Below are positions 1,736 to 11,664 of a stretch of DNA of 64,000 nt, in pieces. The translations under genes and the position numbers were made by a program. The stretch's first letter is position 1. The number at the start of each line of letters is the position of its first letter. Origin of the DNA: Naegleria gruberi (lineage: Eukaryota); the NCBI GenBank assembly GCA_000004985.1, contig GG738894.1; one strand, 5' to 3'. Under the pieces are notes generated by a model that worked only from the letters and a program-made list of their open reading frames with translations, was not told where the DNA came from and made no database searches.

Positions 1736-1882
1736 AATCAAAGTATTAAGCTTGCTCAATGTTGAAAATTTTTTAGACAAATTTTCCTATTTCTTGGTGT
1801 ATTGTTTACAATAAACTTTAGTGAGTTGAATACTCACTCCAATTTATCCAACAATACACCAATAAATTCGGAAATTATGAGC
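1735..1882. repeat. composite repeat: unit A (108 bp, 1735..1842) followed directly by unit B (41 bp, 1842..1882)
   Basis: Unit A is identical to 2712..2819. Unit B is identical to 1293..1333. Unit A contains a small hairpin, gtgagt-tgaata-ctcac. Confidence 0.7.
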
Positions 1883-2711: not shown

Positions 2712-2819
2712 GAATCAAAGTATTAAGCTTGCTCAATGTTGAAAATTTTTTAGACAAATTTTCCTATTTCTTGGTGTATTGTTTACAATAAACTTTAGTG
2801 AGTTGAATACTCACTCCAA
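2712..2819. repeat. 108-bp dispersed repeat unit A, copy 2
   Basis: 108-nt match to 1735..1842, identical on visual comparison (gaatcaaagtattaagcttgctcaatg...gagttgaatactcactccaa). It lies directly upstream of the open frame of gene 2921..3703. Confidence 0.7.
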
Positions 2820-2920: not shown

Positions 2921-3703
2921 TTGAATGAAACAACTTCCACATCTCCTCGCTCGCCTATTGAAAACATCAGTCCCGATATAACAAACGATGCTCAGTACAA
3001 TGCTATTGTTAATGCTAAAGATCTAAGGGAAAGTATTAAAATATTAACTTTTACGATGATTGAGATGAAAACAGACGTGCAAAGAGATATGAAAAGTATG
3101 AAGAAAGATATTGCAGAAATCAAAGTGGAAATTACAGAAATCAAAAAAGATATGTATAGCTTGAATAGAAATGTGGGCTGCCTTTACGAAGGCCAAGTGA
3201 AAGCAGAATTTGAGAAGAATTTTCAAGTTGAGTCTCCAAAGATTTTAGAATATGACAAGTTTTCAACTAGATTTGCTGAAGTGTATTCCCAAAATGGTTA
3301 CCTTAATGAATTGGTGAAGAAATTGATAATAGGAAATGTTTTGAGCAAGGAAGAAAAAAGAAAGTTGACCTTGAAAACCTTCAAAGTTGAGCTTAATTTT
3401 GTTCTAACCGACAACTCAAACTCCACAAAAGTCCAAATCATTGAAGCAACCATGTCCTCATTCTCAAATCCTAACAAGTTAATATGTAAATTAGTACAAT
3501 TGGAACGTCAAGTATTGTTTTATAAAGCTTGTTACCCATCTCATACAGTCACTAAAATTGGATTAGTTTCACCATCCGATTTGGATTCAGATATGGTAAA
3601 GGATGCACTTGATAAATACCCAGGATTGGTAGTTGTTAAATCATTTTTAGATGAGGGTAATTTTGAAACTATTAGATTGGGTAATAAGCCAGAGATTTTT
3701 TAA
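2921..3703 (+). CDS. hypothetical coiled-coil protein; 5' end unresolved
   Basis: 260-codon ORF. The same frame stays open upstream to about 2806, encoding a K/E-rich stretch with no ATG, so a spliced 5' exon or an internal Met start is likely. The N-terminal half is predicted coiled coil. Confidence 0.35.
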   Translation: MNETTSTSPRSPIENISPDITNDAQYNAIVNAKDLRESIKILTFTMIEMKTDVQRDMKSMKKDIAEIKVEITEIKKDMYSLNRNVGCLYEGQVKAEFEKNFQVESPKILEYDKFSTRFAEVYSQNGYLNELVKKLIIGNVLSKEEKRKLTLKTFKVELNFVLTDNSNSTKVQIIEATMSSFSNPNKLICKLVQLERQVLFYKACYPSHTVTKIGLVSPSDLDSDMVKDALDKYPGLVVVKSFLDEGNFETIRLGNKPEIF

Positions 3704-3819
3704 TTTGAAATCCCATGATGTCCAAAAACAAGTAGTTCACTCTGATTGTTTCGTATTGTTATATTTATCAAGTTAGAATTGAAATAAATCAACTCTTCAA
3801 ATTGGTATATGTGCAAATG

Positions 3820-3955
3820 ATTGAGTAGGGTGGAATTATTCCCTCATTAACTTTTTAATATTTAAGTATTATTTGAAAAGCCATTAAAAAGGAATTGGAT
3901 TTGTGACAGTTATTAAGGAGTTGATCATTAATATTCAATTCCCAAAACAAATGAA
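3820..3955. repeat. conserved ~130-bp element, copy 1 (orphan copy)
   Basis: Matches 10528..10655 in the stretch attgagtagggtgga...cattaaaaaggaattggatttgtgacagttattaaggagttgatcattaatatt. The 3' part is identical for more than 50 nt; a 12-nt indel lies in the 5' part. This copy ends in ATG-AAC-TAG, an aborted ORF. Confidence 0.6.
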
Positions 3956-4008
3956 CTAGATTGGAAATATATGCAAACCAATAAATTTATTTGTAGTGAT
4001 AATTCATT

Positions 4009-7000
4009 TCAAATAATGGAGTTTATTTCTTCAGTCTTGACGATTGCTCCCACATGATACTTATTGTCCAATAAATAAGTCTGAAGAATTCCCTTTCCTT
4101 TTACTGCGATACTACGCTCCTCAAATGTGAATTCTAAATCAAAAACTCTTTCATATGTTTTTCTTGACAGTTGAATTCTTCCAGGTAAACTAGTGCTTTC
4201 CATCCTACTTGCTGTAGTTATGGAAAGAAAATAAGAAAATCATTAAATAATTATTACCACACTTCAAACTTACCTGTGTTGATATTGTCTCCCCAAAGAT
4301 CGTATGCAAACTTCTTCTTTCCAATCACTCCAGCTGTTACACTTCCTGTGTGTATACCTATTCTAATATTTATCTGTTTTTCAACAGGCTTTCTTGAAGT
4401 AATGTTGTAGTTACGAATAACATTGAAACAATCAATGGAAAATCTAAGAATTCTCTCTGGATGATTAATGTCAACATTGTTTAACCCTGCACAACAAAAG
4501 TAAGAATCACCAATGGTTTTGATTTTTTCCACATTATATTTGTCAGTCAAACCATCAAATCCATCAACCACACAATTCAGTAATTGCACTAACTCTGTAT
4601 GTGTTAATTGTGAGGTCAATGCAGTGAATTCAACCATATCACTAAAGAAACAGGTGACATCTGGGTGTTTCTCCGCAATAAGAGATGCTCCAGCCAAAAG
4701 TTGACGAGCTACAGAGCTAGGTAGAATATTAAGAAGCATATTTTCCGATTTCTTCTTTTCTTCGTTTAGTAATAAAATTGCCTTCTTCTCTAAGGTGGAT
4801 TCTTTGATGAAAAATAATGTAATGTGTTTGTTTTCAAAGAATGTTACATAGATATTGACTGTTGCAGGGAAAGTCTTTTGATTTTTTCTGACACACTCAA
4901 GTTCAAAAGTTTCTCCTTTAGGGCAGGTTTTTGTTACTTGTTTTTTGATGGATTCGACTTCGTTCTTAACCAAAGTTTGGTGTTCTCTTGTGAATATTTT
5001 AATAGGTTTACCAATAACATCTTCGAGTTGATAACCAAACATTCTTTGAGCTGAAGGATTGAAAATATCCACTAGCATTGTATCATTACATGTAATTACA
5101 CCATCAACAAATGTGTTAAGAATTGTCACTAGTTTTGCATCTCGCTCTGACGTGACACCATTGTTGGTAAATAATTTGGATGGGTTTTCATTAGGTAGTG
5201 TTTTAAATAATGCAAAGTTTTTAAGTTTCTCGTTGAACACCAAAGTATCTATCGATAGGTAATCGAACATGATTCTCATTTGTTGTTCTGCATTAGCATA
5301 TTCACGGAAAATGTAATACATCGAACAAATCGAGCAAGTGACAAGTACAAAGCCAATTACAAAACTCGCTATCACATAATTAATATTTGGTACAGAGGCA
5401 TCAACAGCGAAAATATTTGCAAAATCAATCAATTTCATCGATGACAAGTTAAAAAGAAATAAAATCTTAAGTAAGGAAGTAATATGTTCCTTGATAGTCA
5501 CTGGTTGAAATAAAATTGTCTGGGCCAATAAATTTTGTTTCAACAATATTTGTGTTGATAATAATATATGTGTTAGCATTGTATCTATTCCAATGCCACA
5601 AGTGCTGTTAAAATGAGTGTCAGTTTCTGGAATGGTACAATTTGGATCGCCCTTAATCAAGTGGTCTGTACCGGGAAACATGCCTGCAACTACTGATTCA
5701 AAGGGTTTTGTAGTTGATCCGAATAAACACCAATCCCAATTCCTTTGAAGATTTGCTGCCTCTTGATAATATTGAAGAGTCATATTTAAAGCTTCATCCT
5801 CTGTTATCAATGGTATATCGTCAACATTTCTATAATAAGCATATAGTTCAGTACTGTAAAATGCTACATTTTGCAGATGCTTGGTAGTTTCAAATACGTC
5901 TTGTACATTTACAAAGGATTCAACCGAATAATGGGTATTGTCAAACAAGCCACATACGAATACTGCCGTACACACTCCAACTGTTAAAAATATTACTATT
6001 ATCAAAATGGGGAAACATATCTTATGTTTGAGAGGATCTACTTTTCCTGCATGAGTAATCACTTCTTGTGGTTGTTGTTCGCATAATGTGTGGTATATTT
6101 CACCAACTTCTGGTTTAGAGACACACTCTTTCAGTAGCTTGACATGATTTTTCAATCTAGAGAAAGTGAATCTTGAATATATCAAATATAATACACACAC
6201 TATTAACAAGCAAGGTAACACGGCTGCTGTGTAAATGATTAAAACATTCCTCGAATTCAATGCCTCATCTATATGAACTTGTGTGTAAGAATGACAAAAT
6301 AAAGAATATGCCTGTGTAAGGGTATTTTGATTTCTATAAAGAAACATGAACATAAAGGATGTGTAGGTTTGTAGTAAAGCTTCACTTGTTTCTGACAAGA
6401 AGCGATTTGCCAATAGTTTTAAAATCTTATTGATTTGAGAGAGTGGGTACTTGTTTGACTCAGTCAGGTTATATAAACCTCCTCCTGGTATTACAGTTGG
6501 AATTACTAATGAATAGTGGAAATCAGTAAATTGAGAGTAGATTTGAGGTGAAAACTTTGAGGCAAAAGCAACGTTTTCTAAATTGACTATCGATTGTGTG
6601 AAATATTCGACATGCTGTTTGTATTTATCCATGTCAAAATAAATATCATTCGTCCAATTATGTTCGATGGTGATATTTGATTGCATCCAGTGGTCAATAA
6701 TCTGATACCCTCTTCCTGAAAGTAATAAGTTAGTGACACAGGGTATTGTGGCACATGCCTCCTTAGAATGTAGCAAATTGCTTGTTGCTTGATTGGAATA
6801 AATCAGTGACAGCAAGAATGGAGTGATGAGAGCAACCAAGAACAGTATGCAAAAGCCAACAAATAGTATGATAAAAACAGTTCGGCGTGTTGGAGTTGCA
6901 AGAGCATTGCTATAAATCATCTTTCTTGTTTGTGGATCCAGTGTTTCAAATTCTTCTAACGTTTGCTCCTCATTTTCTCTCCCATCAGTGGTAATTTCAG

Positions 7001-8900
7001 ACACAGAAGATTCACCTTCAGCTTTTTTAGTGGATCTGTTGCATTCATTTTCTTCGAGTAAGTTTGCTTTGTTAAAATTCTCATTTGATAATTCTGGATT
7101 TGCTTTAAATGATACCAAATATTGTGCATATATTCTTAGTGCTGTTTTGTCTTGACTATAAAAAGGAACAAGGTTGTTAAATATACAGTCACACTCGGCA
7201 ACTAGCTTGGAGCTTCTAAAAATGACTCTTTCAATTTTTTCCATAATAATACTTTCTTTCAGAAACTCTTTCCAAAAATCCTTATGAAGAGCATAAAGTT
7301 CTTCGGTTTTTCTCCGAATTTTAGACAGTATTAATACCAGTTCTGACTTGGAATCATCTTCACAAAGATACGCCTCAATTTCCTTCTTCTTTTGGCACAA
7401 TGAATACGAAGAAACAAAATTTGCATACTTTGGTGTCATATTTTTTGTTAAAATTGAAAAAGCCAATGTACGTTCACCCTTCGTTTGATATGCCATTATT
7501 GATGCTGATACTAAGGGCAACCTCATACTGCTGTTTAAATCTTGTAAGGTTGCCTTGATAAATGCTATTATCCCTGAATGATACTTGCTTCGTTTAGGTC
7601 CTTTCATCATTTCAAACTTTAAAAAAAGACCCAATAGGTAAACAATTCTATCATCTTGGAGATTTAAGTTTTTTGAGACTGTATATGTTCCAGTGTCTGG
7701 TTCTTCTTTAAAAAACTTGTTCTTAAATTTATACATATTGTATCTTGTATAACATTCCATTGTCACACATCCAATTAAAGCCATCAATAGCATCAACCCC
7801 AGAGTAGCTGAAAACAATATTATTCCAAGAGTGTTATCGTTGGTCACATTGACAAAATATGTCACAAGACCAGATACACTTGTGGCCAGTCTACAGAAAA
7901 TGATACCACTAATAACAGTATTTTCAAATCTTCTTAGCATTGGTATTGTTTGAAAAACAAGTATTATCAATAGTAGAGTCGAAATTATGTGTACAATAGA
8001 TCTTAAATATGCCGTGTACGGAGGAATTAGATGATGAATGACAATCCCAACAACATTGCACAACGGAATAGTGGCCTGAAAGATAATATTGTCATTTAGC
8101 ATTGGGGAGTTGCTTAATGGATGAGAATTTGGTAGAATCAATATTGATAGACCAAGTACAATTATAAAAACAACTATTGAAAGCAATGATAATATCATCA
8201 GAGGAATGTTGATAGAATCGAAACAAGGGGAACCTGGGAATCGATTCAACACCATTCCATTAGGTGCCCGACTAAATGGAATAACTACAGCAAGTGGTTC
8301 AGGTTGCGTCAAGCCATAACTGCAGTCTACAAAGGAAGTTAACACGTATGTGACAGGTGCCGAGATCAATAAACAAGTGTAACATAGAATATGTACCACT
8401 TTTTTCAGGAGCTTCCTCCTGCTACTTACTCTTTTCACAGCAGTATTAGCCAAAATAAAACAGCACACAATTGCCACAATAGTGATCATAAAAAATACAG
8501 CAAGACCAAGGTTAGCATAATATGGAAATGTCCATGATGCAAGAGTTATTGGAAAGTTCAAAACTTTGATGATCCAACTAGCCCATACTCCAAATCTGAA
8601 AGACACTGGATTTAGTAACGGTATCCATACAAAACACCAAAACAATACAAGCTGTACGATGAGTTGCTTAAGAAACTCAATGGTTCCTTTTCTAATTTTG
8701 TTTGCCTGCATTGCAAACAAGAAGATAAAAAACTCATTCGCTATGGCAGACCCAAACTCTGATGATAGAGTAGAGCTCTGGCAAGTAATAGATGTAGAAA
8801 ATCCGTTTTGTTTTTTTTCATCCTTGTTTGTGTCCTTAGTTTTGTTTGGTTTCTCAATACTGATGGCTCCATTATGCTGAAGTCTTATATAGCCTTGCAT
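4009..8900 (-). CDS. multi-pass-membrane, PAS-containing class III adenylate/guanylate cyclase, paralog 1 (~1580 aa)
   Basis: Structure on the minus strand is join(4274..8900, 4009..4211). The intron 4212..4273 (GTAAGT...CAG, phase 1) rebuilds the canonical motif ...FAYDLWGDNINT|ASRMESTS...GRIQLS. There are two blocks of about 6 TM helices, then a PAS-like segment and a C-terminal cyclase catalytic domain with motifs FFSDMVEFT, IKTIGDSYF, RIGIHTG and ASRMES. The ATG at 8900 was chosen by comparison with paralog 20528..25928, although the ORF stays open to 9149. Confidence 0.8.
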
Positions 8901-8989
8901 TTCGATTTCAAACTTTGCATTGTCTAATTCAACTTCTTGTCTCAAATCATTTGGTATGAGATTATTATCCACATTGTTAATATTCAACT

Positions 8990-10211
8990 TTGGGTCTCTT
9001 CTGCTGTACATGAGCATGTAAGCATTTGTGGAATCGCCAATAATCTCATCATTTCCATACATGGATTCTATTTGAGATTTATCAATTTCATCAATATAAT
9101 TATCATTAAATTTAAACCATTTCCCTGAATGGAACGATCTTATTAACACAAAGTAATGCTTTAAAAAAGGTCACTAAAAAGCTAGCTATTTTACATACCC
9201 CTGTAAGTGCATCTCCAGAATGAATGATAACACTATAAAGATCAAATAAATGTTGCTGATCATCTACATATTTTGACATGTCCAACACAAAGGGAAAGGT
9301 AACTTTGTTTCCAAGCTAATACTACAATTACATTAATATGAACAAGTTCATACTTACCTTGACAGGAGTATTTGTTTGATAATCAACCCTCTTGAGTTGA
9401 AGTGTTAAAATGTAGGGAAGATGAGCCAATTTTAAATTCTTGACCGCATCTATTTTCTTATTTCCAAGCTCCTCACAACACCATTGATTATCTCCCTTCA
9501 TTTCCTCAGATTTTAAAAAACTTTCAATGGCCTCCTCGACACTGGACACATCCCGAATAGCCAATTGCAAATCCATAAAACTGTCCACTTTGGTGGTTTG
9601 ATATACTTCACCACTTTGTTTCTTCTCATCCACAGACTCGATATGATCTATTACAGTGCCACAAAACAGGTCGCTGAAGGATACATTGCTATCGTTATTG
9701 TAATTTTTTTGTGGTGGTGATGAATCAGTTTCTTTAGAATGGGATCCGTCAGTCAGCACGTCGAACAAGATCCTAAACACTTCATGAATATCGTGTTGAA
9801 CTTTTAAATCTGATGCTTGCCAGCCTAAGCATAGAAAAATTTTCGCACACGAATCAATCATATTATGTGTTGATAATGAAATCTAAGGACAATCGAAAAC
9901 TTACCAAATGAATTTGTTAACTGTGTGGTGTCCACTGAGTTTCTCTTTGATAAAGTCAAATAGGCAAACAAGCGTTGCAATTGATAAGGGACGCAATGGT
10001 CCTGGTCAGGATCATGCTCAGGATCGTACCTCCATTTGAAAACCAACTCACGAAATTTTGGTGTGTGATGCAGAGATTGTAGTAGAGAATTTAAATAACA
10101 TGTGGTTCCATTATTGGTGAGGCCAACAAAATGCTCTTCCTCTTGTGCACTACAAGATTGACGCCAGTTGGTGTTGGATGGTCCACTTGATGTTTCGTGG
10201 TTGTACTGCAT
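8990..10211 (-). CDS. USP7-like ubiquitin carboxyl-terminal hydrolase catalytic domain (no MATH domain); 3' end unresolved
   Basis: Exons on the minus strand: 9905..10211 (ATG at 10211; Cys box GLTNNGTTCYLNSLLQSL), 9358..9824 (SFGWQASDLKVQHDIHEVFRILFDVL ... LPYILTLQLKRVDY), 9199..9315 (LYSVIIHSGDALTG) and from 9158 downward (HYFVLIRSFHSGKWFKFNDNYIDEI...STNAYMLMYSRR). Introns are 9825..9904, 9316..9357 and 9159..9198, all with GTAAGT or GTATGT donors. The frame has no stop after the last USP motif and runs straight into the cyclase ORF. Confidence 0.65.
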
Positions 10212-10527
10212 GGTGATGTAAATTGTACTTTGTTTAAGTGGCGTTCCTCCTATTTTAATTGAAATTGAGACTTTAGTGTGACAAATTTATTATCTAATCT
10301 ATTTTGGTAAAATTGTAAAAATAGTAATTAGACTTCCGTAAAAAGTTGCGTCTTTTTGAAGGTACAAAATACTTTCACGGTAAACACTGCTTGGAACACA
10401 AAATCTGAGCAACACTCAAACTGTTTTCAAACAATTCTTCCAAGGTAAACTGCAAACAAACCAACTGCCGCTTAGTGCAAACTCTTAAATTGATTAAATC
10501 TCTGGTTCCAAAAACCAAATGTTTTCC

Positions 10528-10655
10528 ATTGAGTAGGGTGGAAATCATTCCCTCGTTTAATTGTTAATTATTTGAAAGGGCATTAAAAAGGAATTGGATT
10601 TGTGACAGTTATTAAGGAGTTGATCATTAATATTAAATTCCAAAAAAAATGAAAC
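10528..10655. promoter_or_regulatory. conserved ~130-bp element, copy 2, forming the 5' leader/promoter of the F-box gene
   Basis: Near-identical to 3820..3955. It ends at the ATG at 10649. Confidence 0.5.
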
Positions 10656-11664
10656 GACAACAAACCTGCGCTAATCCAGAAGAAAAAAGCGAAAAACGCT
10701 CCAAACACAACGATCAAGCGAAAATTGTAACCTTGCAGATGGATGAGGCTTTGGCGGGAAAAAATTCTAGCCTCTTATTCAGTAAGAAGACGAAGAATAT
10801 TGAAATGACAATTCATTTGAACGGAATGGAGTGTCATGAAGGGATACTTTCCACCATATTTGATTTTCTGGATGTGAAAGATTTGCAATTTATTAAATCA
10901 GTATCATGGAAATGTTATGAATTGGTGCTTGCTGATAATTCAAGATATGCACAGAGAATGAGGGAGGAGTTTCCAATATATTGTAAAAGATTGGAGTATT
11001 TGAATGAGTTTGCTGAAGGTTTGATGATAAAGTGGCTGAAGAGGAGATTTGTGAAAAGACATGGCGAGAGATTATTATGGTAGATTGTGGAGAAATCAAA
11101 CGGGAATCATGAGAAGGTTGTTGAAATTATTGTGAATTATGGATTGTTTGATCTTATTGAAATATTATCTGATGAGTTTCTAAATGCTAGACTTGCATTA
11201 TATGAATGTGGAAAGAAGATAGATGAGTTTGAAAGTCTCTTTGAAGGTAAGCTATTTAATTGTGTTTGCCATCCCTAAAATGTGTACAGATGATTATGGC
11301 CTGTTTGCAATAAGTGAAATCATTTCACAGGGGGAGGAGTTCTATAAAAAGGTTATTGCTAAACCTGAGCTTGGTAAATCAGCACTTCGATACGGATATG
11401 AGGAATACATGTATTGTTTCCATTCTCTCTATTACATTCCAACTCAAAACTATATTGCAGAAAACGAAATTCAGTACGAAAGAAGAAAACAAAAAACCAT
11501 CAAAGCACTTATTGAAGGGTATGATGTTTTTAAGAATTTCAATCCTATCTATTGTTAGGTGGTTTCCAATAACAGGTTGTTTCTTTAATATTATTCCATT
11601 GTACAACAACTTGATTTCCAAGAGTTTAACCAAAAAGAACAAAACCTCAACAACAAATTCCTAA
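10649..11664 (+). CDS. F-box domain protein (multi-exon; an in-frame TAG at 11081..11083 interrupts the frame)
   Basis: Exon 1 is 10649..11080 and carries the F-box-like motif HEGILSTIFDFLDVKDLQFIKSVSWKCYELV. The same frame continues after the TAG at 11084..11246 with no ATG. Further exons are 11290..11518 and 11559..11664, with introns GTAAGC..ACAG and GTATGA..TTAG. Phases are consistent with the ORF-track frames. Confidence 0.45.

Follow-up and report, generated by a model that had tools for sequence, protein, structure and literature searches.

The 64-kb window considered here (the whole stretch of DNA that was analyzed, 64,000 nucleotides), which derives from a Naegleria-like heterolobosean, carries two copies of an element of about 130 bp, 6.7 kb apart and in the same orientation, with a gene of the opposite strand between them and an F-box gene immediately to the right of the second copy (Table 1). 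The ORF to the left of copy 1 has neither a Pfam domain nor a homologue at E≤1e-8. The gene between the copies, for which our own exon model is 10211-9905, 9824-9358, 9315-9195, 9124-4274, and 4211-4009, encodes UCH, TPR_TmcB, PAS, and Guanylate_cyc domains; for the cyclase, matches at 26-28% identity include no close orthologue, and the fusion of a truncated USP47-like fragment to the cyclase is a further rearrangement at this locus. The F-box protein, whose Pfam F-box match is weak (17.9 bits), is 48% identical over 99% of its length to N. gruberi NAEGRDRAFT_69112, which we read as its orthologue; N. gruberi alone was returned in the homologue search, and scanning metagenomes with the protein as guide confirmed 0 loci of F-box relatives.

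Table 1. Features at the repeat locus (positions in the 64-kb window).
Feature	Position	Strand	Remarks
Orphan ORF	2921..3703	+	Stop codon 3701-3703 bounds the spacer with copy 1; AATAAA at 3784-3789
Direct repeat, left member	3782..3817	+	Probable target-site duplication; best-conserved part 3801-3817, ATTGGTATATGTGCAAA
Copy 1, putative orphan ectopic leader copy	3820..3955	+	Between two convergent gene ends
Core, copy 1	3882..3935	+	Exact 54 nt
Direct repeat, right member	3945..3977	+	Best-conserved part 3960-3977, ATTGGAAATATATGCAAA
Chimeric USP47-like fragment + TM/TPR/PAS/cyclase gene	4009..10211	-	Between the two copies
Copy 2, native leader of the F-box gene	10528..10653	+	Runs into ATG 10649-10651
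Core, copy 2	10581..10634	+	Exact 54 nt
F-box gene	10649..11558	+	Intron 11247-11289; in-frame TAG 11081-11083

Aligned by blastn, the two copies are 84.7% identical over 137 columns (E 1.5e-36), and the same pairing was recovered by MAFFT and a repeat search. All 12 differences among 125 aligned positions lie outside the 54-nt core, where they occupy a hairpin loop and A/T runs; an identical run of this length would be expected with P=0.014 if 12 differences were placed uniformly. Even when up to 3 mismatches are allowed, the core matches the 64-kb window only twice (0 matches expected from shuffles), and there is no third copy of the ~130-bp element in the window. Since the whole window contains only three repeat families, the element is not generic repeat background. 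The preliminary description, which placed the two copies at these positions and noted a shared stretch identical for more than 50 nt, is confirmed. The limits of the homology are abrupt on both sides, the downstream one falling within a few bases of the ATG (downstream P~1; upstream, in whole-flank tests, P 0.05-0.36).

A structured RNA gene, one of the identities first suggested in the form of an snRNA-like gene, is not supported. A search of the whole window with Rfam 15 at gathering thresholds gave 0 matches, and at E≤10 the two copies reached only 13-18 bits versus thresholds of 48-60 bits; Rfam/Infernal reportedly recovers U1-U6, 5S, and tRNAs in Naegleria (PMC6831594). ARAGORN found no tRNA-like region in the element; the two copies, on either strand, fold no better than shuffled controls (z of -0.21, +0.80, -0.66, and +0.05); and RNAalifold found 0 pairs changed on both sides, a comparison of two sequences only and so of low power. 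The element does resemble spliceosomal snRNA and spliced-leader genes in its size of ~130 nt and in an Sm-site-like AUUUGUG noticed by eye, but it differs from them in having no Rfam match at E≤10 and no stable or covarying structure, and we rejected the spliced-leader idea because the splice-donor-like AAG|GUAUUA exists in copy 1 alone.

Copy 2 sits in its native context. It runs straight into the ATG at 10649, as had been claimed, and this ATG is a genuine start of the F-box gene because the MKR with which the protein begins is common to the N. gruberi orthologue. Judged by its continuity with a conserved start codon, copy 2 is the gene's own 5′ leader (proximal upstream region and/or 5′UTR). 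A search for a generic promoter motif in the core found none: its k-mers show no enrichment ahead of 20 other genes, and the A-rich CAAAAAA/AAACAAA beside the ATG is the only context common to other upstream regions.

Copy 1 ends in ATG-AAC-TAG at 3951-3959 on the + strand and is followed by no + strand ORF, just as the preliminary description had it. It is also bracketed by a direct repeat, the short form of which (3801-3817/3960-3977) matches at 15/18 positions (P=0.004-0.009) and the long form (3782-3817/3945-3977) at 27/37 columns (P=0.0037; 0.009 against an AT-rich and 0.002 against an A-rich background). Across test designs P ranges from 0.002 to 0.03, several comparisons having been tried, and the repeat is short and diverged, and lies in A/T-rich DNA, in which chance matches of 10-11/13 are common. 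The bracketing is confined to copy 1, whereas the flanks of copy 2 hold no significant direct repeat (P=0.40; P=0.22), an apparent repeat-like pair there having been set aside at P=0.22. The first ~11 nt of the right member overlap the end of the homology between the copies, and the right junction of copy 1 reads as donor-type ATG followed by target-type AACT, a microhomology junction. A block matching at 13/14 positions (3791-3804 versus 10480-10492), with P=0.007 when the search space is kept small, hints that homology with the copy 2 locus may run on upstream through the proposed target duplication; an upstream extension of the copy 1 homology is unsupported by the whole-flank tests, and the short flank blocks are not recurrent motifs.

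The spacer that holds copy 1 is oversized: it measures 305 bp from stop to stop, versus 58, 65, 89, 112, and 148 bp for five other convergent gene pairs in the window. Subtraction of the insert and one member of the direct repeat leaves ~145 bp, and the excess is about the length of the insert. The gap from copy 1 to the stop codon of the conserved cyclase exon is 53 nt.

We suggest, at a probability of about one in two, that copy 1 arose in a single ectopic duplication of ~135 nt of the F-box leader, its insertion duplicating the target, and that no second gene was ever attached to it. Specifically, i) the copied segment would start near -121 and stop at the first bases of the F-box start codon, and its destination, 6.7 kb away, would be the small gap separating the 3′ ends of two convergent genes; ii) the donor was probably the F-box locus or its paralogue, because copy 2 abuts the conserved start and the homology includes the ATG; iii) ~18-35 nt of target would have been duplicated on either side of the insert, and because the direct repeat brackets copy 1 in a convergent spacer, a ~135-nt insertion is a better description than a decayed gene copy; iv) at the right junction, donor and target would resemble each other across A-rich sequence, and such microhomology suggests that the copy arose by templated insertion or a repair-type event or, less likely, that a short leader transcript was retroposed with the A-run as priming site; and v) the predicted pre-insertion site would read ...CAAATTGGTATATGTGCAAACCAATAAATTTATT... 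between ORF 2921-3703 and the cyclase 3′ end. The combination expected of a templated duplication is found here, namely a donor in native, conserved context and a second copy that alone is bracketed by duplicated target. Copy 1 itself would most probably have no function; at most, it could be an orphan promoter directed antisense into the cyclase 3′ end.

Among known systems, the templated (filler-DNA) insertions and micro segmental duplications that arise by double-strand break repair or replication template switching offer a parallel in several respects: a ~135-nt copy, with sharp ends and unchanged orientation, of a nearby sequence 6.7 kb distant; junction microhomology; target duplication; and no coding capacity. 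They differ in that the 18-35 nt of duplicated target exceeds typical end-joining footprints and in that a neutral scar would not be expected to keep a 54-nt core unchanged. Indeed, a neutral relic should show changes in the core, and since there are none, this counts against an inert relic; that the core is identical amid ~16% divergence in the flanks and the flanking repeat is mildly unexpected, and calls for constraint, gene conversion, or luck.

The best-surviving alternative, although an unlikely one, is that the element belongs to a dispersed or mobile family of low copy number, either SINE- or MITE-like or derived from a small transcript by retroposition; copy 1 would then be a transposition with target-site duplication and copy 2 an older insertion that now serves as the F-box leader. 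A discrete unit of ~130 bp with sharp ends in two unrelated contexts is what such a family would produce, the direct repeat around copy 1 is as long as those that accompany LINE-mediated retroposition, the element is A-rich at its 3′ end, and Naegleria genomes reportedly contain LINEs (1.85% in N. fowleri; PMC6831594). But there are only two copies in 64 kb; an exact search with a 22-mer of the core found 0 occurrences in metagenome and viral collections; copy 2 has no significant flanking repeat; the homology takes in the F-box ATG, which is ancestral; and the element has no terminal inverted repeats, no tRNA-like part, and no Rfam match to 5S, 7SL, tRNA, or other Pol III-type small RNAs. Like copy 1, LINE-mediated retrocopies (SINEs and small-RNA or mRNA retro-pseudogenes) are A-rich at the 3′ end and flanked by direct repeats of some 15-20 nt; unlike them, the element has no poly(A) tail, no family of copies in the window, and no internal Pol III promoter, and whereas such retrocopies normally keep the 3′ end, copy 1 corresponds to the 5′ end region of a gene. 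We also discarded an LTR pair or solo LTR: two direct repeats do bracket a 6.6-kb segment, but its interior is a host-type USP-cyclase gene on the opposite strand with no gag/pol, and the repeats are only ~130 bp long and 85% identical, one of them carrying a conserved host start codon.

Slightly less probable again is the insertion of the entire 6.6-kb USP-cyclase block (3956-10527) into an array formed by ORF 2921-3703, the leader, and the F-box gene, the two copies then being a ~130-bp target duplication. A single complete minus-strand gene, flanks included, fits exactly between the direct repeats, that gene is chimeric and evidently rearranged, and in N. gruberi the nearest USP relative sits on a scaffold of 602,266 bp and the F-box orthologue on another, of 396,977 bp, a comparison that is weak because the USP match may be a paralogue. 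A target duplication of 130 bp would however be unusual, the direct repeat around copy 1 alone would be left unexplained, and the cyclase has no close orthologue that would point to its ancestral location.

It is also conceivable, though we consider it improbable, that selection keeps the 54-nt core at both sites, either as a cis-regulatory block specific to the gene or as a small RNA without structure, in which case copy 1 would act as an orphan promoter or a boundary at the cyclase 3′ end. The USP-cyclase gene would then bear the element at both its 5′ and 3′ flanks, for example as an antisense orphan promoter or a paired boundary element, copied and kept by selection. Such constraint would account for an identical core beside a remainder and a flanking repeat diverged by ~16% (P=0.014), and for the confinement of variable positions to the hairpin loop and A/T runs. 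Against it stand the Rfam result, folding energies equal to those of shuffled controls (z -0.7 to +0.8), the 0 compensatory pairs, and the k-mer comparison with 20 other upstream regions; moreover, the differences cluster in low-complexity runs prone to slippage, and short-tract gene conversion across 6.7 kb would yield the same pattern.

Least probable of all is the model of the preliminary description, a promoter/5′UTR module duplicated along with a second gene that was later lost: copy 1 does retain the ATG and two to three more F-box coding bases, but no leftover F-box coding similarity continues 3′ of it (P~1), only 53 nt are available before the conserved cyclase stop codon, and the flanking repeat and spacer arithmetic suit an insert of ~135 nt. 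A duplicated leader module thus survives from that model, with copy 2 as the F-box leader and copy 1 as its orphan duplicate, and the lost target gene does not.

We wish to stress that, if copy 1 is an ectopic leader duplicate, it would be the kind of trace that small-scale duplication routinely leaves in a compact protist genome, and should not be annotated as a gene, a member of a promoter family, or a noncoding RNA; it would nonetheless supply one datable case of the scattering of a promoter or leader fragment, beside the USP-cyclase fusion. It looks like an ordinary by-product of genome rearrangement rather than a new RNA gene or transposon family, and would gain greater interest only if the core were functional at the orphan site or a family existed genome-wide. 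The literature yielded nothing on Naegleria promoters or on this element, only general genome statistics. Interleaved 100%-identical repeats at 1293-2819 are, like the USP-cyclase fusion, a sign of other rearrangement at this locus and speak for the ectopic-duplicate reading.

Two same-strand copies of an element of about 130 bp share an exact 54-nt core in the window, which we read as routine small-scale copying of a gene's leader rather than a novel kind of element: copy 2 would be the native leader of an F-box gene, and copy 1 a templated ectopic copy of about 135 nt which, with a target duplication, came to lie between two gene ends (probability roughly 0.5). The copies match at 84.7% over 137 columns (blastn, E 1.5e-36), confirming the two stretches and long identical core of the preliminary description; equally correct were its observations that copy 2 continues into the F-box ATG, and that copy 1 terminates in ATG-AAC-TAG with no + strand ORF downstream.

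Coordinates of the duplicated leader and neighboring features in the window
Feature	Coordinates	Strand	Remark
Copy 1	3820-3955	+	orphan
Core, copy 1	3882-3935	+	54 nt
ATG-AAC-TAG	3951-3959	+	end of copy 1
Copy 2	10528-10653	+	leader
Core, copy 2	10581-10634	+	54 nt
Flanking repeat, short form	3801-3817 / 3960-3977		15/18
Flanking repeat, long form	3782-3817 / 3945-3977		27/37 columns
Upstream block	3791-3804 / 10480-10492		13/14
Orphan ORF	2921-3703	+	260 codons
USP-cyclase gene	4009-10211	-	chimeric
Stop of final cyclase exon	4009-4011	-	
F-box gene	10649-11558	+	ATG at 10649
In-frame TAG	11081-11083	+	in F-box frame
Direct repeat A	1293-1333 / 1842-1882		41 nt, 100% identical
Direct repeat B	1735-1842 / 2712-2819		108 nt, 100% identical

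The USP-like gene on the minus strand (start at 10211) and the F-box gene are divergent, with a 437-bp spacer between their starts, and copy 2 takes up the ~121 bp of it nearest the F-box ATG. The window is eukaryotic and gene-dense, with ~34-35% GC and short GT-AG introns. Only one relative of the F-box protein was detected, NAEGRDRAFT_69112 of N. gruberi (48% identity across 99% of the F-box protein), whose N-terminus is likewise MKR, indicating that the ATG is ancestral; a protein-guided metagenome scan found no environmental relatives. The F-box frame is broken by a TAG where the orthologue has Trp (ERLFWWIVEASN in N. gruberi vs ERLLW*IVEKSN in the window), and past it is still open and conserved. 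TAG is a stop codon in use here, since it ends 3 of the 28 long ORFs in the window (TAA terminates 23), and the one here is explained by a nonsense mutation of very recent origin (TGG>TAG), by sequencing error, or by read-through.

Copy 1 sits in a 305-bp spacer between two convergent stops, those of the orphan ORF and the final cyclase exon. The ORF, whose N-terminal half is coiled-coil-like, matches no Pfam domain and yielded no homologues at a cutoff of E<=1e-8, and the lack of an in-frame ATG near its start suggests that an upstream exon is probably part of the true gene model. Stop-to-stop spacers of five other convergent pairs in the window (8 of the 10 ORFs with Pfam domains) measure 58-148 bp; the copy-1 spacer, less the insert and one repeat, comes to ~145 bp. 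Homology to the copy-2 locus ends abruptly, with none downstream of copy 1 (P~1) and no significant whole-flank match upstream (P 0.05-0.36).

A diverged direct repeat brackets copy 1 (ATTGG-TATATGTGCAAA vs ATTGGAAATATATGCAAA), with P 0.004-0.009 for the short form against geometry-matched window positions, 0.0037 for the long form (0.009 when the background is AT-rich, 0.002 when it is A-rich), and 0.016-0.028 in a larger search space; at copy 2 no flanking direct repeat was significant (P 0.22-0.40). The right-hand repeat shares the last ~11 nt of homology between the copies. At this junction copy 1 reads AAACAAATG followed by AACT, in which the G of ATG is donor-type; the left repeat, AAATAAATCAACT, identifies AACT as target-type, placing the join within a stretch of donor/target resemblance. 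The DNA here is A/T-rich, with a dot plot full of 10-11/13 chance matches, and the 13/14 upstream block, which overlaps the flanking repeat and is as improbable (P=0.007), is not a recurrent motif and is unsupported in whole-flank comparison; the duplicated unit may be somewhat longer than 136 nt. A target duplication around copy 1 is probable, not proven. Such a copy would have arisen by template switching during repair or replication or, less likely, from a short leader transcript reverse-transcribed by priming on an A-run.

That the element is a low-copy mobile family is unlikely: i) allowing <=3 mismatches, the core has only 2 matches in the window and 0 in shuffled sequence; ii) blastn (word size 7) found no third copy there, and the entire 64 kb holds three repeat families only; and iii) an exact 22-mer core query had 0 matches in metagenome and viral collections. 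A search of the Naegleria literature gave general genome statistics, and nothing on promoters or this element. Slightly less likely still is a ~130-bp target duplication from insertion of the whole USP-cyclase block; the copies are indeed positioned as direct repeats flanking that one minus-strand gene, but the repeat around copy 1 is left unexplained.

We also doubt that a functional core has been maintained at both sites. Across its 54 nt the core shows 0 differences, a run with P=0.014, vs ~16% of positions in the rest of the repeat and flanking repeat. This identity is suggestive only, since the differences cluster in A/T runs prone to slippage and the core could also have been homogenized by short-tract gene conversion. 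No core k-mer is enriched upstream of 20 other genes in the window, which argues that the core is gene-specific, not a general promoter motif; the only enriched k-mers present in the element are the ATG-adjacent, A-rich CAAAAAA/AAACAAA. The feature gains interest only if the orphan core is active or a family is found. Window-wide, start codons (e.g. 15025-, 19628-, 26003+, 62128-) are preceded by a strongly enriched A-rich, G-poor context, TCAAAAAA occurring in 8/20 upstream regions vs 0.44 expected. By eye, the core holds a TGATCA palindrome and, on its minus strand, a 14-codon ATG-to-TAA ORF (MINSLITVTNPIPF), both uninformative so far because they are identical in the copies by construction.

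The duplicated leader module of the preliminary description stands, with copy 2 native and its ATG ancestral; a second gene duplicated with the module and then lost is very improbable, homology being absent downstream of copy 1. An snRNA-like or other non-coding RNA gene found no support: Rfam gave 0 matches over the whole window at gathering thresholds and chance matches of 13-18 bits on each copy (Infernal/Rfam reportedly recovers U1-U6, 5S and tRNAs in Naegleria; PMC6831594), ARAGORN found no tRNA-like part, minimum free energies on both strands equaled shuffled controls (z -0.66 to +0.80), and consensus folds, built from two sequences only, held 0 compensatory pairs.

The intervening minus-strand gene joins a truncated USP47-like domain in frame to a multi-TM/TPR_TmcB/PAS/class III cyclase. 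Over its N-terminal ~395 residues it matches residues 82-474 of an N. gruberi USP47-like peptidase (1,139 aa) at 48% identity. Missing from this segment are the catalytic His box (where N. gruberi has HSGTSSGGHYYAYIKSFSSDKW, the window gene has HSGDALTGVW-KW) and the entire C-terminal two-thirds of the peptidase; ~55 residues on, with no stop between, homology to Naegleria TM/TPR_TmcB/PAS/cyclase proteins begins. Best matches of both parts are N. lovaniensis, N. fowleri, and N. gruberi proteins, the closest cyclase relatives being only 26-28% identical and lacking a USP domain; these matches point to a Naegleria-like heterolobosean as the source of the DNA. The N. gruberi scaffold that carries the USP relative is not the one with the F-box orthologue. 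At 1293-2819, direct repeats A and B interleave as A-X-BA-Y-B, B abutting A at 1842, a layout reminiscent of tyrosine-recombinase retroelements (Ngaro/PAT-like), whose direct repeats are split. However, neither X (401 nt) nor Y (829 nt) contains a long ORF or Pfam domain, and local rearrangement of recent date or misassembly could also have produced the arrangement. The chimeric gene, the separate scaffolds, and the interleaved perfect repeats show that this locus has undergone small ectopic duplications in the past.
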